The notes: generated by a model not told the origin, from the sequence alone. 64,000 nucleotides of DNA from Candidatus Peribacteria bacterium RIFCSPLOWO2_12_FULL_55_15 (GCA_001789045.1 MFYG01000021.1:13341-77340), one strand, 5' to 3'. Shown: positions 2,379 through 40,524, counted from the first letter of the stretch. Numbers and translations are program-made.

Positions 2379-4691
2379 TCATAGACTCATGCCGATGGCT
2401 CTGAGGTTTTGTTCTTTCACTTGGTTATCTCTCTCTCCGATCCGATCTCTGATATCCCCAGTTGTGATAATGTTTAAATCGATGAGATAATGGAAGTTTT
2501 TGAGTTCTGTTCCAAGGAGTGCTTGGACCTTCGTGTGTGTGAGAATCTGGGCAATGATTGGTTCTGTCCATCGCTTGCGCATTTCTCCGATGAAGGTTGC
2601 GCGGGCTGTCTGTGGCAGACGGGTATACGATTCATGTAGCTGCCGGAGTAATCCGTTTACAACAGCTGCTGTAGGGAGTTTTCCATTCGTGTCGGGACGC
2701 AAGAGGTTGACAAAGTGGGCGGGAGGGACCAGGAAGAGCTCGCTGATGGTATTTCCGTAATCCGAATCGATTTTCGTGAGATCTACTGTTGCTGAATATT
2801 TCTCTTCGTATGCCTCTTCTATAGATTCACGGTATTTCACAAATTCCTCTATTGTGGGGTCGTAGATAGTGATCGCCCCGCCGGTTTGCGTGTGGACAGT
2901 ATTTGTCCCGAAGAGCTTGGCAATGGCGTAATCTAGGCGGTCTTCTGCCGAGGGACCGACGACATCTTTCCCATCTTTGTTTTTGTCCTGTTCATCAATG
3001 CGGAGGCCACCCCCCGCTCGTATGAGTTGCTCTGCTTTCCGAAAAGCTTTTTCGATGACGTGCTCTGCACCCATGGTGCCTTCCCTGGCACGTCTTATGT
3101 ATTCGGTACTCATGAATTTGAGAGTGGAGAGGAGGTGGCTCTGTGGGGCTGAACACTGTGGATCGAATATAAGACCACCGAATGATTTCAACACTGGTTC
3201 GGTGAGGTATGGGTGCTGTCCTGGCTGGAGTGCTCTAATGAGTTTTACTGCTGCCCATGTGGGAGTGTGGCCTAAATCTCCTTTGATGATGGCGCGTTTT
3301 ACAATGCCTCGTACGAAGTGGTATTCGTATTTTTCTAAGTGTGTCTGGATGTGGGGAATCATGTCCCATGCCTGTCCCTTTGCGCTTGCAAATGCAAAGC
3401 CTTCCTCTTCCTGTTTCTTCCCCGCCTGTTCGTTGCGCACTTCTATGGTGCGCCAGAATTCTTCATTCTGCATAGGAGTCCAATGGACGGGGAGTTTGAT
3501 GTTTTCGCCAATGTTTTTTCCGAAGCACGTTGCTGTTCCATGACTGCCTGTTTTCAGATTGTAGAGGGCACCTCGGCTCGACATGACATTGAGCCAGGCA
3601 CGGATTCGTGCTGGGCTAAAGCTCGAGCCTCTTTCTTGGAAGAGAGTAATGAGTTCTTTCGTTCCTGTTCGTTCAAATTCTCCATTCTCTGTCTTCATTT
3701 CTTTTTCTTCATTTTCCTCGAGATTTTGACGGAGCGTTCGTTGGAATTCATCATCGGGGATGAATCGTGCTGCTCCGTATGCCATGGATGCAGCACGGCG
3801 TTCTTTCTGTGTTTCCCATTTCCTTTTGTATGCTTCCCAGATTTTCTTCAGGGCAGCGGGAATAGCGAGGATTGTCATCGTGTTCTCCCACCCTTCTTTC
3901 AGGAAGCCTATTGGAGAGAAAATTTGTTTCATTTCATCCCAGTACGCCTTATTTTCTTCTTCGAATCCTTTGCGCATTTCTTGCACAGCTTTAAGGACGG
4001 GGTCGAGATATTCTGCGTATTTTTTCAGTTCTTCCTGAATCTGGGCCAACTTTATCTTTGCATTGACAGTCAGGCTGAGCTTTTTGATGATTTTCTCCTT
4101 TTCCTTCCCAAATTCTTCATCGTCTGGGTCTGTGTTGCGCCATTTGGTATCGATGTCGGGATATTGCTCTTTGATGCTTTGGAGTTCCTGTTCTAGATTC
4201 TGATGCATGGTGTCCATGGCGTGATCATCTTCGTGAAGAATGCGCATCCAGTGAGCGAAATCTCCTGGGGGGAGGTCTCCATTTTGGAATCGCTCGATGG
4301 TGTCAGCCTCGTTTTCCAAATGGGAGACGACATCGCGCTCGTGATAACAGTATGCGGCGATGTCTCTCACCTGATCCGCGATATCCACGCGGTCTTTATT
4401 TTGCTTATCCTTGGATTTTTTCCGTTCGCTCTTCTGGATTCCATCGAGCGCTTTCACAAAGCCACGATGGTCGATGAGGCGGAGGGCCTCATCCATCATT
4501 TCCCGGAGAGCTCTTGCTTTCGCGTAGAGGGATTCCTTCTGCTCTGGTTTCTGGAGCGTGCGTTCGGCATCTGTTCGCGTTACTTCCGTCACGATACCGG
4601 GTTGTGGTCCCACTTCTGTGGGGGGGTCCTCGGGATTGAGCTCGCCACTTCCTATATCTTCTGATGGTGGTGTTGGTCCTGTCTTCGTCAT
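2379..4691 (-). CDS. Large hypothetical protein (770 aa), charged and coiled-coil-rich N-terminal half, no motif recognised
   Basis: This is a long intact ORF with the same compositional character as its neighbours. Its start lies 1 nt downstream of the upstream gene's stop, which suggests an operon with 4693..5166 and dut. Confidence 0.6.
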   Translation of the reverse strand: MTKTGPTPPSEDIGSGELNPEDPPTEVGPQPGIVTEVTRTDAERTLQKPEQKESLYAKARALREMMDEALRLIDHRGFVKALDGIQKSERKKSKDKQNKDRVDIADQVRDIAAYCYHERDVVSHLENEADTIERFQNGDLPPGDFAHWMRILHEDDHAMDTMHQNLEQELQSIKEQYPDIDTKWRNTDPDDEEFGKEKEKIIKKLSLTVNAKIKLAQIQEELKKYAEYLDPVLKAVQEMRKGFEEENKAYWDEMKQIFSPIGFLKEGWENTMTILAIPAALKKIWEAYKRKWETQKERRAASMAYGAARFIPDDEFQRTLRQNLEENEEKEMKTENGEFERTGTKELITLFQERGSSFSPARIRAWLNVMSSRGALYNLKTGSHGTATCFGKNIGENIKLPVHWTPMQNEEFWRTIEVRNEQAGKKQEEEGFAFASAKGQAWDMIPHIQTHLEKYEYHFVRGIVKRAIIKGDLGHTPTWAAVKLIRALQPGQHPYLTEPVLKSFGGLIFDPQCSAPQSHLLSTLKFMSTEYIRRAREGTMGAEHVIEKAFRKAEQLIRAGGGLRIDEQDKNKDGKDVVGPSAEDRLDYAIAKLFGTNTVHTQTGGAITIYDPTIEEFVKYRESIEEAYEEKYSATVDLTKIDSDYGNTISELFLVPPAHFVNLLRPDTNGKLPTAAVVNGLLRQLHESYTRLPQTARATFIGEMRKRWTEPIIAQILTHTKVQALLGTELKNFHYLIDLNIITTGDIRDRIGERDNQVKEQNLRAIGMSL

Positions 4692-6118: not shown

Positions 6119-7240
6119 ATGCTTCCTGTTGTTGCCACACTTGCTTTTATTCTTCTCCTCACGGGTCTCATTTTGATCCACGAGGTTGGGCATTTCCTTG
6201 TGGCCCGTCTCTCTGGTGTCAAAGTTGAGGAGTTTGGTTTTGGCCTTCCTCCGCGTATTTTTACACTTTTCCATTGGCGGGGGACGCGTTTCACATTAAA
6301 CTCGATTCCTGTGGGAGGGTTCGTTCGTCTTAAGGGGGAGGGTGCTGTGACATCATCGGCACGAATGGCCAAAGGGAGTTTTGCGCGCGCAGGCGTTCTC
6401 CGTCGTTCAGCTATTCTCCTCGCTGGGGTAGGCATGAATTTTTTTCTTGCTTTTCTTATTTTTGTCATTGGGTTTTCCGTGGGCGGGTGGGTCCCGACGT
6501 ACCGAACCGTTTCAGAACTCAATGCTGCCCGTGAGCGCGGCGATATACAGTTCACTCCGAGTGTGGTTATTGAAGATGTTGTGGCTGGCGCGGGTGCGGA
6601 CAGAGCAGGTGTTCTGCGGCAGAGCATCCTTCTGAAGGTAGGTTCTGTTCTTGTCTATTCGCCGGACGATGTTGTCAGGGAGCAGATGGGCAAACAACAG
6701 GTGCTCTACACCCTTCTCATTGGATTTCCACATGAACAGGAGAGCGCTGTTTTGGTCAGAGTGCAGGATGGGAAAACGGGTGTGCTCCTTCGCTCGGTTC
6801 CGCGCGATCTCATTACCCGACCTCGTTCAATTGTCGCGTCGTCGGTTCTTGCCTTGCGTGAGTCCTGGGTTGTTATGGTACAGACGGTGCGTGGGATGGG
6901 GGCGCTTTTCCTTTCCGTGCTTCGGTCTGCGTCTGTTCCAAAGGAAGTGACTGGCATTATTGGCATTGCGCATTTGACCTATGCTTCTGTGCAGGAAGGT
7001 GTCGGGACATATCTTCGTCTTGTCGCACTTTTAAGTTTGAGTCTTGCTGCATTAAATGTTCTCCCGTTTCCCGCTCTGGATGGGGGGCGCCTCCTCTTCG
7101 TGTTTTTGGAATGCTTTTGGCGGAAGCCTCAAAGTCGGCGTATTGAGCTCACTATCAATATGGTGGGTTTTAGTGTGCTTATCGGTCTTATTGTTCTCGT
7201 GACGTTCTATGATGTCCTGCGCCTCTTCATTGTCTCATAG
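6119..7240 (+). CDS. rseP: Site-2 (M50) zinc metalloprotease RseP/YluC family
   Basis: HEVGHFLVA (HExxH), a PDZ-like middle region and NVLPFPALDGG (the LDG motif) are present. The start is uncertain: TTG 6101 or ATG 6119. Confidence 0.85.
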   Translation: MLPVVATLAFILLLTGLILIHEVGHFLVARLSGVKVEEFGFGLPPRIFTLFHWRGTRFTLNSIPVGGFVRLKGEGAVTSSARMAKGSFARAGVLRRSAILLAGVGMNFFLAFLIFVIGFSVGGWVPTYRTVSELNAARERGDIQFTPSVVIEDVVAGAGADRAGVLRQSILLKVGSVLVYSPDDVVREQMGKQQVLYTLLIGFPHEQESAVLVRVQDGKTGVLLRSVPRDLITRPRSIVASSVLALRESWVVMVQTVRGMGALFLSVLRSASVPKEVTGIIGIAHLTYASVQEGVGTYLRLVALLSLSLAALNVLPFPALDGGRLLFVFLECFWRKPQSRRIELTINMVGFSVLIGLIVLVTFYDVLRLFIVS

Positions 7241-8678
7241 TGCGCTCGTCCCGTCCGTAGTCCAAAAGGATTTCCGCGAGCTTTGGATTGATATTCTTCG
7301 CTTTGTTGAGCAGAAAATTCCGCGTACGCAGTTCATTACCTGGTTCCGGGATACCATGATTCTTGGAGAGGAGGAAGGGACGCTCATTGTGGGGCTTCCT
7401 CTTCCGATGTCTCTCAATTGGCACCTCGAGCACTATCGGGCAGTCACACTGCAGGCTGCACAAGCGATCCATTCGTCCATTGAACAAGTGGTGTATAAGG
7501 TGGATGTCGGGTTGAAAGATAATCCATCGCGTGCGATTGATCTTCTTCATCATTTTCCAGAGCAGAAGCGTCGCAAAGTTTCCGGAAGGCAAGAGGTGCG
7601 TCTCGCTGAGGGGATTGTCAGTAAAATTCTTAATCCACTCTACACGCTGGAGAATTTTGTCGTTGGAGCGAATAGTCGTCTTGCCTACGCTGCATCGCAA
7701 GCAGTGGCGACACAGCCTGGAGGGCGTTATAACCCCTTATTTGTCTATGGCGGCGTTGGACTTGGAAAAACGCACCTTTTGCAGGCTACAGGCAATGCCA
7801 TTCTCCGGCAGCGTCCGACCGCAATGGTGGTCTATACCACGACGGAGGATTTTACCAATCATGTCATCGAGGCAATTCAGCACCAGAAGATGGAACAGTT
7901 CCGGCGGCGGTATCGCGTCGTCGATGTTCTCATCATTGATGATGTGCAGTTTCTTGCGAACAAAGAGCGGACGCAGGAGGAGTTTTTCCACACGTTCAAT
8001 GCGCTCTATGAGGAACATAAACAGATCATTATCTCTGCGGATCGTCCGCCACAGGAACTGCAGTTGGAAGATCGTCTTACGTCACGCTTTGCGCGTGGCA
8101 TGATTGCGGATATTTCTGTGCCGGATTACGAGACACGTCTTGCGATTTTAGTGGAGAAGGCGCAGGAGTATGAGCTCTTCATCGATCGTGCTGTTCTCGC
8201 GTTCATCGCGGAGCATGTAACACAGAACGTGCGGGAACTGGAGGGGATTTTGATGCAGGCTGTTGCGCAGTACGAGTTGGAGCAATGCATGCCGACGATT
8301 AAGAGCATTGCGGATATCATGCGCAAACTCAATCATGATCCCCATGCCTCTGAGGATCAGGTAGGGTTCGAGTATCCGAAGCAGCGGAGTGCGACGTTCC
8401 AGGATGTCCTGGAAGCCGTCAGTCGGTATTACTCGGTATCCGTGCAGGATATGCTTGGCGCATCGCGTGTCCGTGAAATTCTCCTTCCGCGTCAGATTGT
8501 GATGTTCCTTTTAAAGAAATATCTCCGCACGAGCTATGTCCGTATTGGAGAAATCTTCAGTAATCGGGACCATACGACGGTGATGAATTCGTACAACAAG
8601 ATCGAAGAGATGCTGCAGAATGATCATCAACTCCTTAGAGAGATGCGGGCACTGGAGAAGGAAATGGATTTCGTGTAA
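7209..8678 (+). CDS. dnaA: Chromosomal replication initiator DnaA
   Basis: N-terminal domain (WIDILRFVEQKIPRTQFITWF), AAA+ Walker A GGVGLGKTHLL, Walker B LIIDDVQF, and a C-terminal DNA-binding domain (GEIFSNRDHTTVMNS). Its 5' end overlaps the rseP stop by about 30 nt. Confidence 0.93.
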   Translation: MMSCASSLSHSALVPSVVQKDFRELWIDILRFVEQKIPRTQFITWFRDTMILGEEEGTLIVGLPLPMSLNWHLEHYRAVTLQAAQAIHSSIEQVVYKVDVGLKDNPSRAIDLLHHFPEQKRRKVSGRQEVRLAEGIVSKILNPLYTLENFVVGANSRLAYAASQAVATQPGGRYNPLFVYGGVGLGKTHLLQATGNAILRQRPTAMVVYTTTEDFTNHVIEAIQHQKMEQFRRRYRVVDVLIIDDVQFLANKERTQEEFFHTFNALYEEHKQIIISADRPPQELQLEDRLTSRFARGMIADISVPDYETRLAILVEKAQEYELFIDRAVLAFIAEHVTQNVRELEGILMQAVAQYELEQCMPTIKSIADIMRKLNHDPHASEDQVGFEYPKQRSATFQDVLEAVSRYYSVSVQDMLGASRVREILLPRQIVMFLLKKYLRTSYVRIGEIFSNRDHTTVMNSYNKIEEMLQNDHQLLREMRALEKEMDFV

Positions 8679-16257: not shown

Positions 16258-18528
16258 ATGTGTCATGAGCGCTCTGCTAGAATCCTTTCAACGTTTTTCC
16301 TTTCTCCTGTGCGACTTATTCATGTTGCAAAGGCATTGAGCATGACCGGGCAGGAGCTTCGCCACGAGCTTCTGCAAGTGGATTTCGGCGTGAAGCCGAC
16401 CGATCGTGAGGTGTCGGATACCCTTGCCCAGGGGATCATTCGCTACCTTGCGCGCAAGTACAACATCACTCCCCAGGGGATTTCCTCTTCGTATGTTCTC
16501 GAAGAGTCTGAAGAGGAATCACCGGAATCTTCTCCTCCAGTCCCCTCATCCCCCCAACCATCTCCTGCGGTGAGAGGGAGTTTTCCCGTTAGCGCACAGG
16601 AGGCTGTTCCCGTTCTCCGCAAACTCACGTTGGAAGATATTCCACGGCCGGCTCCTTCCAAGTGCCCGATTGGTCATGTTATAGGGGAGGATCATCGGGG
16701 CTCGCGATTGATTACGGAGCGGAGCGAGGAACGGAAGAAGCAAACTCTCAAGACGCAGGAGCAGATTAAGCACAAGGAAGGAATTGTTCTGTTGCCTGCC
16801 CGTATTTCGGTGAAGGAATTTGCAGAAAAGACAGGGGTGCAGGTTCCTCTTGTTATAGAGACACTCATGAAAAATGGCGTGATGGCGACGGTGAATCAGG
16901 CGATAGATTTCGATACCGCCGTCATTGTTGCAGCGGAGCTTGCGGTCACTGTGGAACGTGAGCAGGAACAGGCGCGGGCGGAAGACCTCCTCTCACGGAA
17001 TCTCAGAGAGCTTCTTAAGGATGATCCCGGCCCCCTCGTCCAGCGTCCGCCGATTGTCGTTATCATGGGGCACGTGGATCATGGGAAAACGTCGCTTTTG
17101 GATGCCATTCGAAAGACCAATGTGGCGAAGGGGGAAGCGGGAGGGATCACCCAGCATATCGGGGCGTATCAGGTTGAGCATGCCGGGAAGCGCATTACGT
17201 TCCTCGATACTCCTGGACATGAGGCGTTCACGGCCATGCGTTCACGCGGGGCTCAGATTACTGATGTCGCTGTCCTCGTCGTCGCGGCCGATGAGGGGGT
17301 GATGCCGACGACGATTGAGGCCATCCATCACGCTCGTGAGGCGGAGGTGCCGATACTCGTGGCTCTCACGAAGATGGATAAGCCTGCCGCGAATGTTTCG
17401 AAGGTGGAGGGGGAACTTGCGGCCCAGGACCTTCGGCCGGAGGACTGGGGAGGGGAAGTACCTGTGGTTCTTTGCTCTGCAGTGACAACCCAGGGACTTT
17501 CGGACCTCCTTGATCACATTCTCCTTCTTGCGGAAATGGAAAACCTCCAGGCGAATCCTGCGCGGAGAGCCATTGCAACGGTGATCGAAAGTCACCTGGA
17601 TATAGCCCACGGGCCACTGGGCACTGTGATCGTGAACACGGGAACGCTCCATATTGGCGATTCCTTTGTCTGTGGGAATACCTCGGGACGCGTGCGGGCG
17701 ATGATCGATGCAACGGGTGAGCGTATACAGGATGTTCCACCCTCCGGAGCTGTGCGTGTTTCAGGGTTCAGCGTGGTGCCTGATACCGGGGATATTGTCC
17801 AAGTCGTTGCGTCCGAGCGCGAGGCCCGTGCACTCTTGGAGAGTGTAGAGCGGGGCGTCGTCAACGCTGAGCGGCACGGACTGACCGATTTCGTGAGCAG
17901 ACTCACTGAGGGAAAACTTACCCAACTCAAGGTTATTGTGAAGGCGGATGCCCAAGGGTCGCTCGAGGCCATCCAGTCGTCTCTTTCGAAGCAATCCACG
18001 GGAGAAGTTATCGTGAAGGTGATTCATGGCGGGGTTGGGGCGGTGACGGAGAGCGATGTCATGCTTGCTGCCGCGAGCGGCACGCTCATTATTGCTTTCC
18101 ATGCGCCAGTGACGGCTTCTATTATCAAAACGGCAGAGGCACAGCATGTGCGGATTCGCGAGTATGAAGTGATCTATGCGCTTCTGGAAGATATTGCGGG
18201 CATCATGCAGGGATTACTGGTGCCAGAAGAGGAGGAGAAGGTCCTCGGGCACCTGGAGGTGAAGGGGGTGTTCTTCATGAAGAAGAACGAGCAAATCATT
18301 GGAGGGCGTGTGACGGATGGGGTGGCGAAGCGTGTGACGTTCCGGTTACACCGCGCGGATAAAGTTCTTGGCCAGGGGAAGATCACGTCGCTCCGAAAAG
18401 TCGAAAAAGATGTGAAAGAGGTTGGGGATGGGAGTGAGTGCGGTCTCAAGGTTGAATTTCCTATGCCTATAGAACTCGGCGATGTGCTCGAGATTTTCAG
18501 TAAGGAATTTCGGAAGCGGGTGGACTAG
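16258..18528 (+). CDS. infB: Translation initiation factor IF-2
   Basis: IF2_N motif (VRLIHVAKALSMTGQEL), G domain GHVDHGKTSLLD / DTPGHEAF / TKMD, and C-terminal domains. The start is uncertain: TTG 16255, ATG 16258 or GTG 16309. Confidence 0.92.
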   Translation: MCHERSARILSTFFLSPVRLIHVAKALSMTGQELRHELLQVDFGVKPTDREVSDTLAQGIIRYLARKYNITPQGISSSYVLEESEEESPESSPPVPSSPQPSPAVRGSFPVSAQEAVPVLRKLTLEDIPRPAPSKCPIGHVIGEDHRGSRLITERSEERKKQTLKTQEQIKHKEGIVLLPARISVKEFAEKTGVQVPLVIETLMKNGVMATVNQAIDFDTAVIVAAELAVTVEREQEQARAEDLLSRNLRELLKDDPGPLVQRPPIVVIMGHVDHGKTSLLDAIRKTNVAKGEAGGITQHIGAYQVEHAGKRITFLDTPGHEAFTAMRSRGAQITDVAVLVVAADEGVMPTTIEAIHHAREAEVPILVALTKMDKPAANVSKVEGELAAQDLRPEDWGGEVPVVLCSAVTTQGLSDLLDHILLLAEMENLQANPARRAIATVIESHLDIAHGPLGTVIVNTGTLHIGDSFVCGNTSGRVRAMIDATGERIQDVPPSGAVRVSGFSVVPDTGDIVQVVASEREARALLESVERGVVNAERHGLTDFVSRLTEGKLTQLKVIVKADAQGSLEAIQSSLSKQSTGEVIVKVIHGGVGAVTESDVMLAAASGTLIIAFHAPVTASIIKTAEAQHVRIREYEVIYALLEDIAGIMQGLLVPEEEEKVLGHLEVKGVFFMKKNEQIIGGRVTDGVAKRVTFRLHRADKVLGQGKITSLRKVEKDVKEVGDGSECGLKVEFPMPIELGDVLEIFSKEFRKRVD

Positions 18529-20561
18529 GGTGCTGGAGTTGTAGGTGGAGGAGGTGGTGGTGGTGGGGGGGTGGTGGGGGCGGGTGTGGTGAGGTTAATA
18601 ATGAGATTATTCTGCCAGTCGGAGGGCAGGTTCCCGGCAATGGAGGTGTCCGCATCGACGATTCTTTTCACAGAATCAACTATTTGCTCTGAAGTTGAGC
18701 GATCGAAATCCCCGACTTTTATTGCGAGGGTATCAAGAATTCTCTGGAGTTCCTTTCTTGCTTCCTTATACTCTGGTGTACTCTTGTTTACGAGCGTTAG
18801 TATGGTCTGTTGGAACTGTTTTCCGAGGTTGGTTTCCTTGAGTTCCTTTGCTGCGGCGGCGGCTTTATCTGTGGATATGGTCTTTGCGCCAAAGAGCGGT
18901 TTCCCCGCCCATGCGTTTGCCAATATTTGATCCGGACTCAGCTTCTGTCGTGTTCTCATTATCTGCGCGGGGATGGCTAACATTGATGCCACATTGATTT
19001 TATCCGCACCGAGCCATTTTTTCCCGCGCTCCGTCCTGCTGAGGGCTTGCAATGGTCTTTTTGCCATAGCGACGCCGAATCCTCCTGAGAGCGCAACAGT
19101 TCCAGCGCTGTAACCGTAGGCGCCGATTTTCCCCAATTTCTGGCCGGTTGCTTTGATGGCAGCGCTCCCCATACCGATATATTCATCCGATTGGAGAACG
19201 GCGAAGACCCCCATCCATAGGATGATGATTGAGAGGGCCATGAACAGAAAATTGGGGAGGGCTGAAAGGACTCCGTTGGTTGTGAGGGTAATGTTATTCA
19301 GCGCAGCGGCTGTTCCGGGAGCGTTCTGTATGCTTTGCAACGCGATGAATCCTACAGCGATAGGGATGCCGGCCATAACGGGCATGAAGGCTGCAGATAG
19401 GAACTTTTTCCATATTTTGTCTGTGAATGGTTTGATGGAGTCCGCGACAAACCCGAGCGCGACGAAGGGCATGAACCCCATGGTGATCCAGAGGATTGGC
19501 AGGCGGATGATGAAGGCGAGAGCGAGGGCTGCTAGGATGATCAAGTACGAGCCTGTACCAAGCATGATGAGAAACAGCCCCATGGCAAGTTCTATTGTTT
19601 CCGTGAACGATGATGCGGGGCTGGTGAAGATGCCGAGGTTCAATAATGGCTCAAATAATGTGGCAGCATCTGGGTTGAGCGTTGCTCCCTGTTGGAGGAT
19701 TTGCGCCAAAAATGTGGTCAATCCGCTGACAACGTAGTTTGCAGGATTTCCTGCTCCGATTGGATCAATTTTGACGCAGATCAGCGCAGTAGGGCAGATG
19801 GAGCCTGGGGGGGCAAGGGTTCTGAGGATAACACCTGTGATTGCTTTGCAATTGTTGCATGGCACATGAGCGCTAAGGGAAAAGATGGCGCGTGTGCCAA
19901 TAGATGCTGCGTCGACGATTACGCCGGGGATGAACCAGGAGAAGTTCACGAGGATGATGGCGGCGAGAAACTTCAGCGCGTAGCGATCGATGAATTCCTT
20001 GTTCGCTTTGATGATGGTCATGATGGCGCCGAAGAGGAAGACGGCGGCGAAACCGATGTTCACTGCGTTGCGGGAGACGGTCCAGATGTTTCGGTGGATG
20101 ACAGATTGTATATCTGGACTGTAAAAGAGAAAGTACGCGATGGTCCCATTTGCGGAGGAAACGGTCGATTCGACGATTTTGATCATTATGAATATGAGCG
20201 GGACGGCGATGCTGACGAAAATTGTGTAGATGGTCCATACAATGATGCGGCCTAGTGTTGCGATGAAGATTACGAGGAGTAATCCGAAGAAGGCCTTCTG
20301 TGCTAACCACAAAGCTGTATCCCTTATGAATTTCAAGATCCCTTGTGCGACTATGGCCCAAAGCGGGGCTTGTGCGAGGAGGCCAAGAGCATGTGCCTTT
20401 TCAATGATTGCGGTGGAGAGCAGGTCTACTGTGCCGTGCGTCACGGCGATTGAGATAAGGAAGATAATGGCTATTCCTCCGCAGACGCATTTTCCAATGG
20501 AGGAGCGATATTTGTGTTTACGCATTCTTTCCAGAATAGCATATATGTCTATTTCTTGCAA
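18525..20561 (-). CDS. Large polytopic membrane protein (at least 10 TM segments) with a soluble C-terminal region ending in a polyproline tail; possibly TrbL/VirB6-like
   Basis: Many hydrophobic helices throughout. The C-terminus is ...TTPAPTTPPPPPPPPPTTPAP. It follows the pilin-like gene after 18 nt. The start is TTG 20561 or ATG 20525. The VirB6 assignment rests on architecture and context only. Confidence 0.6.
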   Translation of the reverse strand: MQEIDIYAILERMRKHKYRSSIGKCVCGGIAIIFLISIAVTHGTVDLLSTAIIEKAHALGLLAQAPLWAIVAQGILKFIRDTALWLAQKAFFGLLLVIFIATLGRIIVWTIYTIFVSIAVPLIFIMIKIVESTVSSANGTIAYFLFYSPDIQSVIHRNIWTVSRNAVNIGFAAVFLFGAIMTIIKANKEFIDRYALKFLAAIILVNFSWFIPGVIVDAASIGTRAIFSLSAHVPCNNCKAITGVILRTLAPPGSICPTALICVKIDPIGAGNPANYVVSGLTTFLAQILQQGATLNPDAATLFEPLLNLGIFTSPASSFTETIELAMGLFLIMLGTGSYLIILAALALAFIIRLPILWITMGFMPFVALGFVADSIKPFTDKIWKKFLSAAFMPVMAGIPIAVGFIALQSIQNAPGTAAALNNITLTTNGVLSALPNFLFMALSIIILWMGVFAVLQSDEYIGMGSAAIKATGQKLGKIGAYGYSAGTVALSGGFGVAMAKRPLQALSRTERGKKWLGADKINVASMLAIPAQIMRTRQKLSPDQILANAWAGKPLFGAKTISTDKAAAAAKELKETNLGKQFQQTILTLVNKSTPEYKEARKELQRILDTLAIKVGDFDRSTSEQIVDSVKRIVDADTSIAGNLPSDWQNNLIINLTTPAPTTPPPPPPPPPTTPAP

Positions 20562-20579
20562 GGTTTTGAGAATAGAGGA

Positions 20580-21563
20580 CTAGACGACACCGAATGCCGA
20601 TGGGTCGATTGTGGAGAGAATCGTTCCTGCGAAAATGAGCATAAGGAGTCCGACGATTGCCCACAGTATGTGGTCTTTGGCAGTTGTACGGAGACCCGGA
20701 TTCCCGCCAGAATTCATGATTTCGATGCCGCCGATGACAATTCGGAGGAGGGCGAGTCCCACTCCGATGCCGATGAGCCATTTCCAGACAGCAGAAACGT
20801 AGGACATAGCGCCAAGCGTCTGCTGGGAACTGAAAGGTTGCAGGAATGTGAGAGAAGAATTGTCTGGAAATGGAAGTAGTGACCATGTTGGGACGACGTT
20901 TGATCCACATACTCTGTCGGGGCCGCAGTTGCCACTGCAGCAATCCTCTTTGAGATAACATCTCTGATTATCCATGATGCAGCATTTGGATGTCTGTGGG
21001 GAACACCTGAGGCGAAGGGGTTGCTGACAGCAGCGCTCTTCTGGATGTTCACTGCAATCTTTGCCAACTATACGACAGGCAGTATCCACTGGTGGTGGGG
21101 TAGGTAAATTACATTTACCATTTATGCAGACATTGGACCCCTGTTGACCTTGAAAACAGCAATCCGCGTTTTTATTACAGTCTTGGTCGGGTTTTTTACA
21201 GCACTTCTTATCGTAACATATCAATCCAAAAGAATAGCAACATTCTTGTGGAAACTGACATGGTTCTCCGACTGATTTACAGTGGGCACATCTTGCTTCG
21301 CCGAGGAATGTACTATTGCAGTTTCCAAAGCAACATTCATCGCTATCCGTACATTTTATACCTATGTCTTTACAGCATACATTTCCCGGTCCGCAGATCA
21401 GATCTTTGTTAGGACAGCAATCGCTTTGATCATTGCATACATCAGAGATGTTGCTGCATTCTTCTACATCTACATCTACATTTACATTGTCTGCATAGAG
21501 AGCGAGAGGGGTCAGAAGAAAAGTACCAACGAGTACGACCCGCCATGTCCGGCGCATGCGCAT
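20580..21563 (-). CDS. Secreted cysteine-rich protein: signal peptide, six cystine-knot-like modules, and a C-terminal TrbC/VirB2-like two-helix pilin domain
   Basis: Signal peptide MRMRRTWRVVLVGTFLLTPLALYA. 36 Cys in a regular C-x6-C-x5-CC pattern. The C-terminus WKWLIGIGVGLALLRIVIGGIEIM-NSGGNPGLRTTAKD-HILWAIVGLLMLIFAGTIL forms a TM hairpin. The ORF could extend to a TTG at 21596. Confidence 0.7.
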   Translation of the reverse strand: MRMRRTWRVVLVGTFLLTPLALYADNVNVDVDVEECSNISDVCNDQSDCCPNKDLICGPGNVCCKDIGIKCTDSDECCFGNCNSTFLGEARCAHCKSVGEPCQFPQECCYSFGLICYDKKCCKKPDQDCNKNADCCFQGQQGSNVCINGKCNLPTPPPVDTACRIVGKDCSEHPEERCCQQPLRLRCSPQTSKCCIMDNQRCYLKEDCCSGNCGPDRVCGSNVVPTWSLLPFPDNSSLTFLQPFSSQQTLGAMSYVSAVWKWLIGIGVGLALLRIVIGGIEIMNSGGNPGLRTTAKDHILWAIVGLLMLIFAGTILSTIDPSAFGVV

Positions 21564-21602
21564 ATGTAGGTGTATTGTAGAGTGTGATTTTTCCAATTAC
21601 AA

Positions 21603-21878
21603 TCACCGATATTTTTGGTGTGTCATTCTGTCCATGAGTACGACTGCAAGAACTCCTGCCGTGAAGGCTGGGAGCATGCTTATCAGTGGAAAGAGTTCGA
21701 TCGTTCCTGCGATGACGGTGGGAAATGCCGGAACCCTTTTTATTTTCCAGTAGAGATACAATATAGGCGACACCACCAGTGACACGAGTACATTGATGAT
21801 TGGTAACAATGAGAAAAGATCTGCAGTGAGTGCAAACAGAACGAGCAGAGCAATTTCAGTGGAGGAGATTTTAAACAC
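21603..21878 (-). CDS. Small integral membrane protein (91 aa, about 3 TM), first gene of the cassette
   Basis: Hydrophobic ORF with a GTG start, located 6-39 nt upstream of the pilin-like gene on the same strand. Confidence 0.45.
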   Translation of the reverse strand: MFKISSTEIALLVLFALTADLFSLLPIINVLVSLVVSPILYLYWKIKRVPAFPTVIAGTIELFPLISMLPAFTAGVLAVVLMDRMTHQKYR

Positions 21879-22144
21879 AGCGTCCTAAGTATAGGAGATA
21901 CTGAAAAACTCCGCCACTGACTGCTGTTCATCGACCCCCTCACTCCCATTCGGGCATGATGGCTTCGAACGGCTGCCCTCTCCCATAGGTGGAGGGGATA
22001 ACTAAACAAATTTTTTGTTCAATAATTTCTCTTCAATCCTGCAGTAATCTTTCCTCAAGCTCATACCATTTTCACTGGCTTTTTTCGGTAAATGTGATCA
22101 AATTTGTTGCACATAGGAGAGAGCACTGAGTACTATCTGTATAC

Positions 22145-22738
22145 ATGTCTTCGGCGAGCATTCTGAAGGCGCTCTTCAGTTCGCAGACCCGGGTGAAGCT
22201 TCTCTCGACGTTCTTGCTTCACCCCGAGCGCGAATACTTCATCCGTGAGCTGACGCGCCTCCTCAGTGAGCAGATCAACTCGATCCGGCGTGAACTGGAG
22301 AATCTCCGGAGGGTCGGTCTCGTCCGCGCCAGGCACCGTAATCGCAAGAAGTATTACCGTGTCGAGCAGGATTTTCTCTTGTACGGCGATCTTCGTTCCC
22401 TCTTTTCCAAAGTGGTGCAAGGGGAGAGTCCGCTCGTCCATGGACTTCGTAATCTTCCCTATGTGCAGTTGGTGCTCCTCGCCGGGAATTTCTGTGGGAC
22501 GGAGAGCAAAGTGGATCTTCTCCTTGTCGGGAATCTTCGGAAAGAGCTGGTGGAATCTCTTCTCTCTCAGGATGCACAGTACCGCCATGTGAAGTATTCC
22601 ATCTTCTCTGAGGCGGATTTCCTCTATCGCCTGAGCCTCAAAGATCGCTTTGTGACGGAGATCCTGTGCGATCCCAGGCATTTGATTGTCGTCAATAAGA
22701 TGCAGCCACAGATTGAGGAGGCGAGGGGGAAGAAGTGA
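22145..22738 (+). CDS. Winged-helix (ArsR-like) transcriptional regulator with a C-terminal uncharacterised domain
   Basis: The N-terminus RVKLLSTFLLHPEREYFIRELTRLLSEQINSIRRELENLRRVGLV resembles a wHTH. It is divergent from the membrane cassette. Confidence 0.6.
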   Translation: MSSASILKALFSSQTRVKLLSTFLLHPEREYFIRELTRLLSEQINSIRRELENLRRVGLVRARHRNRKKYYRVEQDFLLYGDLRSLFSKVVQGESPLVHGLRNLPYVQLVLLAGNFCGTESKVDLLLVGNLRKELVESLLSQDAQYRHVKYSIFSEADFLYRLSLKDRFVTEILCDPRHLIVVNKMQPQIEEARGKK

Positions 22739-27528: not shown

Positions 27529-28842
27529 ATGAATATTTATTGCAGTGGCATTGGGGGAATCGGACTCAGCGCCTACGCTTCTCTTCAGCAGGCACTGGGT
27601 CACCGAGTCTCTGGAAGTGACTCTGGAAGTACTCGTCTTCTTGGCGATTTCATGGGTCAGGGGATTACGGTGGCCACGGTGCAGGATGGCTCTGCTCTCC
27701 CGCCGGATACGGATCTTTTCGTCTACTCCGAGGCTGTTCCCTCTCATCATCCTGAGCGTGAACGTGCCAACGCACTTGGCATTCCCTCTTTCTCATATTT
27801 TCAGGCACTCGGTGATCTCTCTCGTCCGTCATTTGTGATTGCGGTGTGCGGTACGCACGGAAAGTCATCCACGGCCGCGATGGCGGCGCGCGTCCTGCTC
27901 TCCACAGGGAAGGATCCTACGGTGGTGGTGGGGACGATGGTGCCGGAATTGGATGGCAAGAATTGGCGGAAGGGGGGAGGGGAGATCTTCCTCCTCGAGG
28001 CATGCGAGTATCGGAAGTCGTTCCATTTTCTCTCTCCCGATCTCATTCTTCTCACGACGATCGATGGGGATCATTTCGATTACTACATAGACGTCTCCGC
28101 ATACGAGGAGGCGTTTAGAGAGTTTTTCCGTCTTCTTCCAGCGGAGGGCTCTCTCGTGGTGCATGGGGATGATCCTGCTGCTCTCCGTGTCGCTGGATCT
28201 TCTGGGCGACGCGTGATTGATGCGGATGTTTGTCCTCTGCCTGTTCTCTCTGTTCCTGGTCGTCACATGCAGGAAAATGCGCGTCTTGTTCTCGGGATGG
28301 CACAGGTCCTCGGGATTCCCATGGATGCGGCACGCTCTTCTCTTGCATGTTTCCAAGGAACATGGCGTCGTATGGAGGTGAAAGGAATACGCGATGATGA
28401 TGTATTGGTGATAGACGACTACGCCCATCATCCGCGGGAAATTCTTGTAACCATCGAAGCGCTCCGTGAGCGGTATCCCGAGCGTCGCATGGTCTGTGTT
28501 TTTCAGCCCCACACCCATGACCGCACGCGAAAATTCTACAGGGACTTTCCCCAGGTGTTTCGCGGCGTTCCTGTTGTCATTATTCCTTATATCTATGCCG
28601 TGCGTACGGAGAACGATACGGAAGAGGTCGATCTTTCTGCTTTTATTGAAGATGTTCGGGAAGGGAGCGGAGGTGAGGTCTTCGGGGATTTTACTCTCGA
28701 GGAAACGGCGACATTCCTCAATGAGGAGATTCTACATTCGGGGGATATTCTCCTCTGTATGGGTGCTGGAGACATTACGGTGCTGGCGGAGTGGATGATG
28801 ATGACGAAGTCTCCGTCCGGAGCCGCTCCAGCACCGCGCTAA
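27529..28842 (+). CDS. murC: UDP-N-acetylmuramate--L-alanine ligase
   Basis: GIGGIGLSAYA....G..VSGSD and GTHGKSSTAAM are present, with Mur ligase middle and C-terminal domains. Confidence 0.88.
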   Translation: MNIYCSGIGGIGLSAYASLQQALGHRVSGSDSGSTRLLGDFMGQGITVATVQDGSALPPDTDLFVYSEAVPSHHPERERANALGIPSFSYFQALGDLSRPSFVIAVCGTHGKSSTAAMAARVLLSTGKDPTVVVGTMVPELDGKNWRKGGGEIFLLEACEYRKSFHFLSPDLILLTTIDGDHFDYYIDVSAYEEAFREFFRLLPAEGSLVVHGDDPAALRVAGSSGRRVIDADVCPLPVLSVPGRHMQENARLVLGMAQVLGIPMDAARSSLACFQGTWRRMEVKGIRDDDVLVIDDYAHHPREILVTIEALRERYPERRMVCVFQPHTHDRTRKFYRDFPQVFRGVPVVIIPYIYAVRTENDTEEVDLSAFIEDVREGSGGEVFGDFTLEETATFLNEEILHSGDILLCMGAGDITVLAEWMMMTKSPSGAAPAPR

Positions 28843-30064
28843 CGATTTTTGCCATTTCTGCACGGTTCACCGGTTCCTCTGGACCAAAAGTACCGGTTGG
28901 CGCTCCTTGGGCATTCGTGTGACCGGCGATGATGTTCTCCTGAAATGCCGTTTCGATTGCTGCTGCGAATGGTGTTTCGATTACAACGTCAGAAAAGAGT
29001 TCCATCTTTGGCCACTGGAGCGGAATGTCGAGAGCGTGGAGTAGGGTCACAACGACTTCTCCCCTGGTGGCGGGTTTCAATGGGTCCACTCTTGGCGCAA
29101 TGTATGCCAGCCATCCTTTCCGTTCAGCCGATGCGAAGAATGGTGAGAACCATGTGCGGCGCGCGCGCGAGTTTTGCGGTTGTTTAGAAGGATTGGTGGG
29201 AGAAATGCCAACGAGGCGATGGGTGATTGCGGAAAGCTCCGCAAGGGTTACGGGATGCTCGGGACCGAATGTTCCCGTTGGTGTGCCGTTCGCATCTTTG
29301 TATCCCGCCATAATCCCAAACTTTGCTGCTGTAAAGACGAAAGGAGCAAACCAAGAGTCTTGTGGAATATCGTGGAATTCTCTGCGTGTGCCATCAGTGA
29401 TCACGGAGACGAGTTGTTCCTTTTCTTCCAGATGCTCCTGTCGCCTCCTCTCTGCTTCTTCGCAGATTAAGGTGATGGAGAAGGTGATGCGACTTCCCTT
29501 CTCGAGGAACAGGGATTTTGTCGGTGGGCTCACACATCCATCGAGTGGTCGGAAATTAACGCTGTACTGTCCCTCTGGCGTGGATGGGAATGAGGCTGGC
29601 GTTGTTCCGGTGAACGCTATCCTGTTCGGTCCTTTGAGATCGAAGGAGAGTTCTTTGGGATTACTATGGACGATGACTGTGCCGACACGGGTGAGGATGT
29701 AGTGGATGTTCACGCGGAGAGCGTCTCCTTCGGCGAATGTAAATGTCATCTGTGAGCGGTCAATGTTTTGTAAGACTTCTCCATTACTGTAGAGCCATAT
29801 TTTTATTTTTGCATTTGCTCCCTCCGGGGATGTTGCCATGATAGTGTAGCTGCCCGCGGCCGGTCTTTCCAGGGAATTTTGTACTTCAGTACTCGTGATT
29901 TGTTCATTTGTTGGTGTGATAAGAGTCCATTTTCCTATCGTTCCACTGGGGCTGTGTTGTTCAATGACGATGGTGTTTGGGAGGACGGACTCTTCGGCAG
30001 AGAGTGGAGTGATATTTTGGAGGAGAGAGAGGAGAGAGAGGAGTGGGAGGAGCAGGAGAAGCAT
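28775..30064 (-). CDS. Secreted surface protein with PEGA-like N-terminal region and three C-terminal SLH domains
   Basis: Signal peptide MLLLLLPLLSLLSLL and SPEGANAKIKI. SLH-like repeats FHDIPQDSWFAPFVFTAAKFGIMAGY..., WFSPFFASAERKGWL... and FSDVVIETPFAAAIETAFQENIIAGH... Its 3' end overlaps the murC 3' end. Confidence 0.75.
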   Translation of the reverse strand: MLLLLLPLLSLLSLLQNITPLSAEESVLPNTIVIEQHSPSGTIGKWTLITPTNEQITSTEVQNSLERPAAGSYTIMATSPEGANAKIKIWLYSNGEVLQNIDRSQMTFTFAEGDALRVNIHYILTRVGTVIVHSNPKELSFDLKGPNRIAFTGTTPASFPSTPEGQYSVNFRPLDGCVSPPTKSLFLEKGSRITFSITLICEEAERRRQEHLEEKEQLVSVITDGTRREFHDIPQDSWFAPFVFTAAKFGIMAGYKDANGTPTGTFGPEHPVTLAELSAITHRLVGISPTNPSKQPQNSRARRTWFSPFFASAERKGWLAYIAPRVDPLKPATRGEVVVTLLHALDIPLQWPKMELFSDVVIETPFAAAIETAFQENIIAGHTNAQGAPTGTFGPEEPVNRAEMAKIVSAVLERLRTETSSSSSTPPAP

Positions 30065-38367: not shown

Positions 38368-40491
38368 ATGGTAGTATCACCCCCTTTTCCACCTTCTTCT
38401 ATGCCTGAAGTGTCCGATACTCTCCCAGTAGCCACCATTCCTCCAGTCACGGAGGTACCGGCTCCCGCTATCCGTCTTGAGCTTGGTGAACGTCTTCAAT
38501 CTCTCCTTTCTCCTAAGGAACTCCAGAGTGAGGATCTCGATACGGTGCAGGAGTTCATCGAGCGAGGGGGGAGACTCATGGCGATCGACTATACGAAGCT
38601 TCCTCCGGAGGAGAAGCAAGAGGGGTTCCGGAAGGCGCGGGAGTACCTGAATCAGCCGATGCATTCGGTCGTTGCCGGGGTTTCGGTAGAGAATCCCGAT
38701 CGTGTGTACCACCATCCGAATCCGAACGATCCAGCAGAGACATTTGCGCCGATTAATCCTCTCCCGCGTGAATGCGTGGAAGAAGTGATGGACATTGCGA
38801 TGGATGAGGAGCGATGCCCGACGTGGGACGGACAGGAGAACTTTACGGAGCGCCAAAAGGTCATCGACCAGTTCATCGCAAGTGTATACCAAGATCGTGC
38901 GACGCTCGCCGGTCTCATGGCGCTCTGTCAGGGGAAGACGGGTTTCGAGGTCTATCGTGACATGCAGGAGCTCTTCGATTTCTGGCGGGAGTATCGAGAG
39001 GTGCAGGAGGTGATGCGTTACAATGAATCACTCTTACGTAGCAATGGCGATACCACGCTCGAATATCGACCGCTCGATGGGGTGGTTGGTATTTGGCAAC
39101 CCTTCAATTTTAGTTGCATTGGGGCAGGGGACACGATGGGTGCGCTCCTCATGGGGAACTCCGTCGTCATCCATACATCGGCCCGCAATGTTGGTACGTA
39201 CAAGTGGCTGTACGACAAACTCCTGGAGGCCGGCGTGCCGCCGGAACGGGTGCAGTTCGTGATTCCGCACGACGATCCTGATCCGGCGAAAATTGACAAA
39301 TCCATGTCCGAGGCGCTTGCAGCGCACCCCTATATGCAGCTCATCCAGTTCACGGGGTCGCATAAAGTTGCGAAAGATCTCCATAAAATCCAGGCTCAGA
39401 AGGTGCAGGATCCGGAGGGGATTGGCCGTCTCGATTACAAACTCCAGGCGGAGGCGGGCGGGTACAATCCCTTTGTCATCACGGGGTTGCCGGACGGGGC
39501 GATGAAACCTCTCCATGCGTTCCTCGTCGCAGGAGGGCATGAGGATGATGAGCCGACAGCGGAAGCGTGGGATGAGTTCTTCGCTCGTCTCGAGCAGGAA
39601 GGTGGGACATTGCAGAATCTTCTCAATGCTGCTGTTGATTCTGTGACAGGACTGCAAGCGCACAAGTGTTCATCGTGCAAAGAATTCATTGTTGCCGTTG
39701 ATGAGCGGGAATTCGATGGTCTGAGTCTCTGGAATGCGGCAATGTTAAAACTCCTCATTACAGAGCGCCTGAAGCGTGTGAAAATCGGTCCAGCCGAAGG
39801 TGGGGAAGCGGAGATGGGATCGCTGATTGATCAGAAGATGCATAACTCCGTACGCACGAGCCTCATGCAGATTGTGCAGGAGGGAGGTGTTCCTCTTACG
39901 GCCGCAACGATAGAGGAGGCAATGGATGCTTTTGTGGGTCTACCGCATGCAATGGTGCCGGTACTCTACGAAGTCCCGCAGGGGAATCTTGATACGATGG
40001 ACAAGGTGGAGGTCTTTGCGCCAGTCGTGCGGTGGAATGAAGTGAAGGGGATCAATGCTGCTCTCTGCCGTGCGAACGATCTGGAGTATGCCCTCACCGC
40101 CACGGTGGTTGCTCCCACGGAGAGTGAGGCAAAGTGGCTGCGTTCGCAGATGCCGCAGGGGGTGGTCTACGTGAGTAGTGATGATGGCAAGATCGATGGG
40201 TGCACAGGAGCACCCGCGCCGCAGATCCCTTTTGGCGGGAGCGCGAAATCGGGAACGGGCTCTGCGTATCGTCCGGGGAATAGTCGCACTCCTCTGGCGT
40301 TTGCACAGGAAGTCTCCTTTCCTCGTGTCAGTCGTGGAAATTGGGGAAAAGGATTACATCCTTCGCCGACTGGCGATGTCCTCGATGGCGTTTTCCGGCG
40401 GGATCCGGAGGGAGTTGCTGTGTGGGTGCGGGAGAATGTGAAGGTGATGGTGGGCGGGGGTGGACTTGAACCACCGACCGCAGGTTTATAA
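38368..40491 (+). CDS. Divergent aldehyde dehydrogenase superfamily protein (P5C-dehydrogenase-like) with a long N-terminal extension and internal insertion
   Basis: IWQPFNFSCIGAGD...GNSVVIHTS, IQFTGSHKVAKD, EAGGYNPFVI, HKCSS (catalytic Cys context) and PFGGSAKSGTGS are present. The last 44 nt overlap tRNA-Ile on the opposite strand. Confidence 0.65.
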   Translation: MVVSPPFPPSSMPEVSDTLPVATIPPVTEVPAPAIRLELGERLQSLLSPKELQSEDLDTVQEFIERGGRLMAIDYTKLPPEEKQEGFRKAREYLNQPMHSVVAGVSVENPDRVYHHPNPNDPAETFAPINPLPRECVEEVMDIAMDEERCPTWDGQENFTERQKVIDQFIASVYQDRATLAGLMALCQGKTGFEVYRDMQELFDFWREYREVQEVMRYNESLLRSNGDTTLEYRPLDGVVGIWQPFNFSCIGAGDTMGALLMGNSVVIHTSARNVGTYKWLYDKLLEAGVPPERVQFVIPHDDPDPAKIDKSMSEALAAHPYMQLIQFTGSHKVAKDLHKIQAQKVQDPEGIGRLDYKLQAEAGGYNPFVITGLPDGAMKPLHAFLVAGGHEDDEPTAEAWDEFFARLEQEGGTLQNLLNAAVDSVTGLQAHKCSSCKEFIVAVDEREFDGLSLWNAAMLKLLITERLKRVKIGPAEGGEAEMGSLIDQKMHNSVRTSLMQIVQEGGVPLTAATIEEAMDAFVGLPHAMVPVLYEVPQGNLDTMDKVEVFAPVVRWNEVKGINAALCRANDLEYALTATVVAPTESEAKWLRSQMPQGVVYVSSDDGKIDGCTGAPAPQIPFGGSAKSGTGSAYRPGNSRTPLAFAQEVSFPRVSRGNWGKGLHPSPTGDVLDGVFRRDPEGVAVWVRENVKVMVGGGGLEPPTAGL

Positions 40492-40524
40492 GTCCTGTGC
40501 TCTAACCAACTGAGCTACCCGCCC
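40448..40524 (-). tRNA. tRNA-Ile (anticodon TAT), CCA encoded
   Basis: The reverse complement is GGGCGGG-TA-GCTC-AGTTGGTTA-GAGC-A-CAGGA-CTTATAA-ACCTG-CGGTC-GGTGG-TTCAAGT-CCACC-CCCGCCC-A-CCA. The body resembles minor tRNA-Ile. Note the A31:A39 mismatch. Confidence 0.72.

Follow-up and report, generated by a model that had tools for sequence, protein, structure and literature searches.

Cysteine-rich VirB2-like pilin and candidate divergent VirB6 encoded by a chromosomal gene cassette in Candidatus Peribacteria

A three-gene cassette between rplS and infB

We analyzed a 64,000-nucleotide stretch of DNA (hereafter, the window) from Candidatus Peribacteria bacterium RIFCSPLOWO2_12_FULL_55_15 (GCA_001789045.1, MFYG01000021.1:13341-77340), an ultra-small bacterium of the Candidate Phyla Radiation from Rifle groundwater. 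Our focus was a cassette of three minus-strand genes encoding a small membrane protein, a protein that joins a cysteine-rich array to a pilin-type membrane hairpin, and a large polytopic membrane protein that we refer to as POLY:

21878..21603, minus strand: small membrane protein of 91 amino acids (aa), from its open reading frame (ORF) and hydropathy
21596..20580, minus strand: 338-aa fusion protein comprising a signal peptide, a cysteine-rich array and a VirB2-like hairpin, from ORF, Pfam and hydropathy
20561..18525, minus strand: POLY, a polytopic membrane protein of 678 aa, from ORF, hydropathy, AlphaFold and synteny

The cassette sits between the convergent infB gene on one side and, on the other, a divergent gene for a 197-aa regulator and rplS, followed by genes for a pyruvyl transferase and lepA. 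An initial annotation of this DNA, made from the sequence alone, had placed the three ORFs at these positions and named infB, the divergent regulator and rplS as neighbors, and our analysis bears out both statements. The tight spacing of the genes was likewise confirmed, with 6 nucleotides (nt) separating the first gene from the second and 18 nt separating the second from POLY. These gaps widen to 39 nt with a pilin gene start at the ATG at 21563, which appears more likely than the ORF start, and to 54 nt with a POLY start at Met13 (ATG 20525), a likely position that agrees with both database entry P0001 and the family alignment.

A VirB2-like pilin fused to a cysteine-rich array

The 338-aa protein could be divided into three parts:

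21492..21563, minus strand: predicted Sec-type signal peptide, residues 12-35, MRMRRTWRVVLVGTFLLTPLALYA, read from sequence
20907..21458, minus strand: cysteine-rich array, residues 47-230, predicted to be extracellular, from cysteine positions and spacing
20607..20789, minus strand: T4SS_pilin (PF18895) domain, residues 270-330, with two hydrophobic helices and loop NSGGNPGLRTTAKD

By its Pfam match, the protein belongs to the T4SS_pilin family (T4SS, type IV secretion system), the VirB2-like pilins of Patescibacteria. Residues 270-330 scored 36.1 bits against PF18895, for a gathering cut-off of 26.6 (E 6.9e-9), and the homologues at loci L005 and L006 also passed the cut-off, at 31.8 and 30.8 bits; the domain is carried too by a database twin, P0020, and by the gene at locus L008. 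VirB2-like pilins in Patescibacteria have been defined with two Pfam models, of which PF18895 is one (PMC12102498). The C-terminal hairpin, WKWLIGIGVGLALLRIVIGGIEIM - NSGGNPGLRTTAKD - HILWAIVGLLMLIFAGTIL, was present as first described, with hydropathy peaks at residues 269-295 and 308-333, and its motif is kept in four homologues. The proposed VirB2-like identity thus stands on the strength of PF18895, with which the homologues agree, whereas another of the profiles originally suggested as checks, TrbC/VirB2 (PF04956), gave 14.2 bits and remained below its cut-off of 27.9. The NCBIfam Mbov_0395 pilin-like model was also below threshold (26.2 against 40). A signal-like segment and two hydrophobic helices with a basic loop are all present, together with an atypical insert of ~230 residues between the signal peptide and the hairpin. 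Once the signal peptide is cleaved, a cytoplasmic position of the basic loop would place the array and the C-terminus on the outer side of the membrane.

The array contains 36 cysteines within residues 47-230 (giving the whole protein a cysteine content of 10.7%) and follows a strict 14-residue period, C-x6-C-x5-CC, such that it can be read as six units of C-x6-C-x5-CC-x3-9-C-x4-9-C. The overlapping motif C-x6-7-C-x4-7-CC was observed 14 times, whereas 5000 shuffles gave a mean of 1.1 and at most 8. Inhibitor cystine knots (ICKs) follow the consensus C-x(3-7)-C-x(3-8)-CC-x(1-9)-C-x(4-13)-C, and six consecutive units of the array fit this spacing, the consensus itself being drawn from general knowledge. 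The sole Pfam family matched by the array, Toxin_29 (spider toxin, PF08116), scored 16.4 bits against a cut-off of 25; because it stays below threshold, 'knottin-like' describes the spacing of the array rather than an established fold. What survives of the knottin array first proposed is therefore its periodic cysteine spacing in six units, and the corresponding profile match does not.

Across homologues, the array diverges faster than the pilin domain (identities of 43, 31 and 26% versus 69, 56 and 54%), and the length of the cysteine-rich pilin ORF varies from 338 to 508 aa, both as expected for a surface-exposed recognition domain. For the 508-aa ORF, located at 2786-4312 on the minus strand of L008 (JACPJI010000126.1), the recorded gene calls cover the last 122 aa only and add, on the other strand, a 323-aa ORF that is probably spurious. 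Full-text literature searching found no description of a pilin fused to a cysteine-rich or knottin-like array. Exported cysteine-rich proteins have been described in Peribacteria, with a proposed role in attachment (PMC4736985).

POLY defines a large family with a predicted VirB6-like fold

Two regions of POLY were distinguished by conservation:

19014..20105, minus strand: conserved core, residues 153-516, from BLASTP against P0008; predicted local distance difference test score (pLDDT) mostly 80-97
18528..19004, minus strand: hydrophilic helical C-terminal tail ending in prolines, poorly conserved and of variable length

POLY has ~9-10 hydrophobic segments, a cysteine-containing beta-hairpin insert and a hydrophilic tail of ~160 residues ending in a proline run, matching its initial description as a polytopic protein with a soluble tail. 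Invariant columns of the core form the motifs VNFSWFIP-V-D and IR-P-LW-T-(A/G)FMPF, and conserved cysteines lie in the beta-hairpin insert, which is predicted to be extracellular. Lengths within the family run from 544 to 965 aa, and members of the pilin-bearing subclade have an additional N-terminal hydrophobic region and a longer tail. POLY matched no family in Pfam or NCBIfam, and an exhaustive profile search with it returned 708 clusters (50% identity) below E 1e-30; because so many clusters have no Pfam model, a definition of the family would improve the annotation of many genomes. The orthologue in Ca. Peribacter riflensis (gene 540) is misleadingly described as 'Glycogen phosphorylase' and has no KEGG Orthology assignment (PMC4736985).

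A first AlphaFold run on full-length POLY, using 17 sequences, gave a poor model (pLDDT 60) that serves only as a hint; its top match in the PDB was 8rtd_L, a stalk chain from plasmid R388. A second model, covering residues 60-520 and built from a 76-sequence alignment, reached a pLDDT of 77 and a predicted template-modeling (pTM) score of 0.72. When this model was searched with Foldseek against 350,542 PDB chains, the top three matches were all TrwI/VirB6 chains (8rt9_F, 8rtd_L and 7o3v_J), with probabilities of 1.00, 1.00 and 0.98, E values from 6.7e-3 to 7.9e-2, template-modeling (TM) scores of 0.41-0.46 and root-mean-square deviations (rmsd) of 8-11 Å. The alignments spanned 330-353 columns against targets of 260-272 residues, and the next PDB hit had a probability of 0.12. 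TrwI is present in all three PDB entries and chain 7o3v_F is named TrwI; the three matched chains were assigned to TrwI from entry descriptions and chain lengths.

The architecture of POLY also corresponds to that of an 'extended VirB6', a type with at least five hydrophobic helices and a C-proximal hydrophilic or unstructured domain (PMC12857230). Fold and gene context together make POLY a candidate for a highly divergent extended VirB6, which is a testable prediction; with the TM and rmsd values obtained here, the assignment falls short of proof.

POLY is a conserved core gene, and the pilin joins it in one subclade

A scan of GTDB species genomes identified 181 POLY loci, and genome counts given here rest on the best 80 of these, nearly all of which come from Peribacteria, Peregrinibacteria or Peribacteraceae. 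ORFs were called and then mapped in all loci that we fetched (~90). Within the best 80 of 181 loci, POLY is single-copy and syntenic in 80 of the 80 Peribacteria/Peregrinibacteria genomes listed. The order in nearly every genome of these groups is rplS and an ArsR-like regulator on one strand, POLY (~600 aa) and a ~400-aa protein on the other, and then infB and a DHH phosphoesterase again on the first. This conserved order and single copy number indicate that POLY is a vertically inherited core gene and no part of a mobile element.

The cysteine-rich pilin, by comparison, is limited to one subclade, represented by the window and by loci L005, L006/L011/L104, L008/L009 and L105; POLY identity to the window copy is 64% in L005 and 38% in L006/L011/L104. 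All copies of the pilin subfamily that we found, in genomes and metagenomes alike, lie at this locus, beside POLY, the small protein, or both, and POLY adjoins a T4SS_pilin gene in the window's clade only. Pilin and POLY are encoded on opposite strands in L006, L011, L104 and L008, which makes the trio a conserved neighborhood rather than a fixed operon. The three-gene synteny anticipated by the initial annotation is therefore real, but it is confined to one subclade and includes members with an inverted pilin gene.

The small protein follows a similar pattern. It consists of an N-terminal hydrophobic hairpin, a basic KIKRV loop and a second hydrophobic segment with an E-L/I-x-P-x-x-S-x-L-P motif, and had no match in Pfam or NCBIfam. 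Homologues with up to 66% identity occupy the same locus position in L007, L008/L009 and L105. In L006/L011/L104, a 147-aa ORF is found at this position; it matched the family profile weakly (4.9 bits, E 1e-3 for a single comparison), and BLASTP found no similarity between it and the 91-aa family. We treat the 91-aa protein as a putative accessory membrane partner of the cassette.

Outside the pilin-bearing subclade, the usual partner of POLY is the ~400-aa protein, which follows POLY in 57 loci (for example, L001 11900-13081, plus strand). It has one central hydrophobic segment and belongs to no family, and at 12-18% identity it is extremely fast-evolving, with an alignment too divergent to interpret. 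None was found in the window's clade, nor was any counterpart present inside the long POLY forms.

These distributions bear on whether the cassette is left over from an integrated conjugative element or was recently acquired by horizontal transfer. Such an origin would accord with the restriction of the pilin and small-protein genes to one subclade, and with base composition: the 20001-22000 bin, which covers these two lineage-specific members of the cassette, has the lowest GC content of the window (0.475 versus ~0.52). Yet the locus contains no integrase, relaxase, coupling protein, repeat-flanked boundary or tRNA, the rplS-regulator-POLY-infB flanks are conserved across the order, and POLY homologues are confined to Peribacteria/Peregrinibacteria. 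We therefore rejected a mobile-element origin, on synteny and the lack of an integrase or relaxase at the locus, and consider it highly improbable.

No motor ATPase was found at the locus

The VirB4 ATPase is the hallmark of every T4SS and its motor. No VirB4, coupling protein (VirD4) or relaxase gene was found in the 64-kb window or in the 8 kb before its start, such that the absence originally reported for the flanking 15 kb holds over a much larger region. Across the ~90 loci, no VirB4 or coupling protein gene lay within 10 kb of POLY when all ORFs were searched with phmmer down to E < 10, using TrwK, PrgJ and TcpF as VirB4 queries (TrwK being proteobacterial, PrgJ and TcpF monoderm) and TrwB, PcfC and TcpA as coupling-protein queries. 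The only secretion-type ATPase in the window is encoded by a PilT/T2SSE-family gene at 51224-52354 (minus strand; PF00437, 319 bits), 30 kb from the cassette, and falls with the ATPases of type IV pili or type II secretion. It adjoins genes for a 573-aa protein with FecR and glucodextranase-B domains (49445-51166, minus strand) and a 918-aa penicillin-binding protein (PBP).

Published genomes show how T4SS genes are arranged in related bacteria. In a survey of 3,035 Patescibacteria genomes, VirB4 was present in ~80% of assemblies, and the pilin gene lay near virB4 in 1,135 of the 1,948 assemblies having both and away from it in ~40% (PMC12102498). For Gracilibacteria, the survey found TrsD and VirB3 mostly away from virB4 and reported VirB6 as 'absent', which the authors attribute to extreme divergence (PMC12102498). 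The part of the survey's genome table consulted here contains no Peribacteria or Peregrinibacteria names (PMC12102498). The complete genome of Ca. Peribacter riflensis contains a solitary VirB4-like gene (gene 599, 716 aa; traC K12063, E 7.8e-46), which sits among argS, recJ-like and rbfA genes, 63 kb from the POLY orthologue; the latter, gene 540, lies between the arsR-like gene 539 and infB (gene 542), and a VirB2-like gene, 219, is 380 kb away (PMC4736985). T4SS-type genes are thus dispersed in this relative also.

These observations weigh on the idea that the cassette is a self-sufficient, ATPase-independent module in which three proteins display a pilin or mediate adhesion. Its appeal is the absence of any VirB4/VirD4/VirB11-type gene from the window, save the distant PilT-like one, and from the 10 kb around POLY at the ~90 loci, a result that held for three VirB4 queries at the permissive limit of E < 10. 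Set against this are the scattered T4SS genes reported for Patescibacteria (PMC12102498), the solitary VirB4-like ATPase of the complete Peribacter genome (PMC4736985), the published VirB6 model, in which the extraction of pilin and the growth of the pilus are coupled to the VirB4 ATPase complex (PMC11294453), and the occurrence of POLY in most genomes without the pilin and small-protein genes. Because the pilin is often encoded away from virB4, and because a relative has a solitary VirB4, local absence of the ATPase does not make the cassette self-sufficient, and we regard such a module as improbable. The initial suggestion of a 'minimal, previously undescribed' module is also a poor description, since VirB2-like pilins and unclustered chromosomal T4SS genes are known in Patescibacteria, Peribacter has its lone VirB4, and the core gene POLY usually occurs without the pilin. 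The other suggestion made there, a detached piece of a T4SS-derived apparatus, fits the dispersed T4SS genes of Patescibacteria and the lone VirB4-like gene of a relative.

The divergent regulator and the surrounding window

Upstream of the cassette lie two further elements:

22145..22738, plus strand: divergent ArsR-like winged-helix regulator, 197 aa, from ORF and homologues
21879..22144, no strand: divergent intergenic region of 266 bp between regulator and cassette, presumed promoter/operator by position

The regulator had no Pfam match at 1e-3. Homologues were found in 77 of the ~90 loci and adjoin POLY wherever the contig extends far enough, and the Ca. P. riflensis orthologue (gene 539) is annotated as arsR (K03892, E 5e-6; PMC4736985). 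The ArsR-like protein is a candidate regulator that probably controls expression of the locus. Scans of 18300-22400 for promoter consensus sequences and terminators returned counts no higher than in shuffled sequence, with no promoter-like site in 21879..22144, so that the reading of this region as a promoter/operator follows from its position. At the other end of the cassette, the stop codons of POLY and the convergent infB overlap by 4 nt (window 18525-18528), leaving no intergenic room for terminators on either strand.

The remainder of the window consists of housekeeping genes, including ftsZ, dnaA, thrS, lgt, corA, eno, dnaK, gap, pgk, a PBP gene, glmS, recA and dnaB. The dnaA gene (7209-8678, plus strand) is ~10 kb from the cassette; in the Patescibacteria survey, T4SS components were frequently close to dnaA (PMC12102498). 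GC skew is positive over nearly the entire window, with no origin switch visible. Extra surface or export genes nearby encode a protein with an S-layer homology (SLH) domain (28775-30064, minus strand) and a protein with a peptidase C39 domain (41152-42354, minus strand). A 770-aa ORF at 2379-4691 (minus strand), between dUTPase/ftsZ and the dnaA region, has no Pfam family, no hydrophobic segment and low cysteine content; the identical protein occurs in many assemblies, where a 107-aa gene is called just upstream. Finally, the window contains a tRNA-Ile gene with anticodon TAT (UAU) at 40448-40524 (minus strand). Such a tRNA is uncommon in bacteria, in which AUA is mostly read by a lysidine-modified CAU tRNA.

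Discussion

Our analysis leads us to favor, at slightly better than even confidence, a reading in which the cassette is one piece, detached from the rest and fixed in the chromosome, of a scattered, Patescibacteria-type, T4SS-derived pilus apparatus in a monoderm cell. In such an apparatus, the 338-aa protein would be exported by the Sec pathway and inserted into the membrane by its VirB2-like hairpin, with the basic loop cytoplasmic and the cysteine-rich array and C-terminus outside. By analogy with TrwI/VirB6, POLY would act as a divergent extended VirB6, providing a membrane platform that recruits the pilin and on top of which the filament is built. In the model for R388, a VirB6 pentamer recruits VirB2 at the membrane base and the pilus grows on top (PMC11294453). 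Energy would be supplied by a VirB4 ATPase encoded elsewhere in the genome, and the array would decorate a pilus or pilus-like stub as a rapidly evolving adhesin directed toward a host or partner cell. The 91-aa protein may serve as an accessory membrane subunit, with expression controlled by the divergent ArsR-like protein. A chromosomal, single-copy and syntenic POLY fits the chromosomal T4SS of Patescibacteria, which is essential in one cultured member (PMC12102498, PMC12857230).

Several results count against this interpretation. The fold match is modest, with a TM score below 0.5, an rmsd of 8-11 Å and E values of ~1e-2, and helical membrane proteins are prone to spurious fold matches. 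Pfam TrbL (PF04610) had no match in 76 POLY members even at E ≤ 1, with no other family appearing consistently, while the controls TrwI and Moraxella VirB6 scored 171 and 119 bits. Profiles built from POLY alignments of 17 and 150 sequences, when run against PDB sequences, returned only coiled-coil or low-complexity matches to the tail. In hhalign comparisons of POLY with TrwI, with a 10-member VirB6 alignment built from PLSDB plasmids, and with the monoderm VirB6 analogues PrgH and TcpH, probabilities were ≤0.5%, and the weak local alignments to VirB6-type proteins were mutually inconsistent. Of the VirB6-like identity put forward in the initial annotation, fold and context thus speak in favor, with TrwI filling the top three positions, and every sequence test against. 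Nor does the pilin domain show direct similarity to proteobacterial VirB2: its profile matched no chain among PDB sequences and hhalign against TrwL gave a probability of 0.2%, so that the link runs through the Pfam family alone. Moreover, most Peribacteria have POLY without an adjacent pilin and with the unrelated ~400-aa protein in its place, such that the adjacency of POLY and pilin could be a lineage-specific chance. VirB4 was seen in a relative, through a published annotation table, and not in the part of this genome covered here, the window and the 8 kb before its start. Finally, ~230 extra residues on every subunit may leave too little room for packing into a VirB2-type filament.

Much of the same evidence could be accommodated by a different explanation, in which POLY is a Peribacteria-specific envelope or housekeeping membrane protein, the 338-aa protein is an adhesin with a pilin-derived anchor, and their adjacency is incidental. 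POLY is, after all, a core syntenic gene amid translation and housekeeping genes; ~75 of the 80 genomes have no pilin beside it, and the inverted copies in L006, L011, L104 and L008 mean that the two genes do not always form one operon. The uniformly negative sequence and profile tests against VirB6, and the TM score below 0.5, also count in its favor, and Peribacteria export many cysteine-rich proteins unrelated to T4SSs (PMC4736985). Against this account stand the findings that the three best of 350,542 PDB chains were all VirB6, with a sharp drop thereafter and with the poor first model returning the same top match; that the gene joining POLY belongs to the very pilin family that VirB6 handles; and that all copies found of the pilin subfamily lie at this locus. 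No alternative fold or family emerged for POLY. On balance, we judge incidental adjacency of an envelope protein and an adhesin to be unlikely, though the main alternative.

Returning to the scattered pilus apparatus, its strongest form would combine a VirB2 pilus in Peribacteria whose subunits, either all or one specialized type, carry knottin-like arrays in a 'bottle-brush' of adhesive domains for host attachment, with POLY as the missing VirB6 of Gracilibacteria and the genes dispersed singly. This combination is put forward tentatively, as less likely than not; if true, a whole machine can be encoded by genes dispersed one by one among housekeeping genes. As a VirB6 candidate, POLY would help to fill a gap in the Gracilibacteria T4SS parts list and would widen the range of sequences recognized as VirB6. 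Patescibacteria, which account for a substantial part of bacterial diversity, grow attached to other cells. Epibiotic growth of the one genetically tractable member requires the T4SS and its VirB2-like pilins (PMC12857230). A pilin that bears a rapidly evolving, cysteine-rich domain suggests that the pilus of this lineage functions in attachment or host recognition, and offers a concrete protein for testing.

Comparison with known systems

The cassette is of a known kind, namely the chromosomal, relaxase-less T4SS genes with VirB2-like pilins found in Patescibacteria (Quinonero-Coronel et al. 2025, PMC12102498; Wang et al. 2023 in PMC12857230). It shares with them the superphylum, PF18895, a chromosomal location amid housekeeping genes, the lack of a relaxase and, as in Gracilibacteria, genes not clustered with virB4, and it lies near dnaA, as their components often do. 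It differs in the knottin-like fusion, a cysteine-rich N-terminal array of ~190 residues; in having a single pilin gene rather than an array of 2-11; in a partner membrane protein of predicted VirB6-like fold that has no detectable sequence similarity to VirB6 and is undetectable by VirB6 or PrgH profiles; and in the placement of the pair between rplS and infB, with the motor elsewhere.

For the cysteine-rich array, the nearest parallels are the knottins, such as the spider PhTx toxins (PF08116), with which it shares a six-fold repeated ICK-type cysteine spacing and a weak Toxin_29 match. Unlike these toxins, the array is bacterial, tandem and fused to a membrane hairpin, and the likeness is one of spacing alone. 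The exported cysteine-rich proteins of Ca. Peribacter riflensis (Anantharaman et al. 2016, PMC4736985) resemble it in lineage, signal peptide and high cysteine content, but they average 1,655 aa and have no pilin fusion, whereas the 338-aa protein is small and carries a T4SS_pilin domain at its C-terminal end.

For POLY, TrwI/VirB6 of plasmid R388 (7O3V, 8RT9, 8RTD) is the best and near-exclusive fold match of the core, and both proteins are polytopic with long helices. Yet POLY is about twice as long as TrwI, has no detectable sequence or profile similarity to it, carries a cysteine beta-hairpin insert and motifs of its own (VNFSWF, LW-T-AFMPF), and is not encoded near VirB4, VirB3 or VirB8. 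With the extended VirB6 proteins (TrbL/VirB6, PF04610), POLY shares a C-proximal hydrophilic extension and, in the clade of the window, a position beside a VirB2-type pilin.

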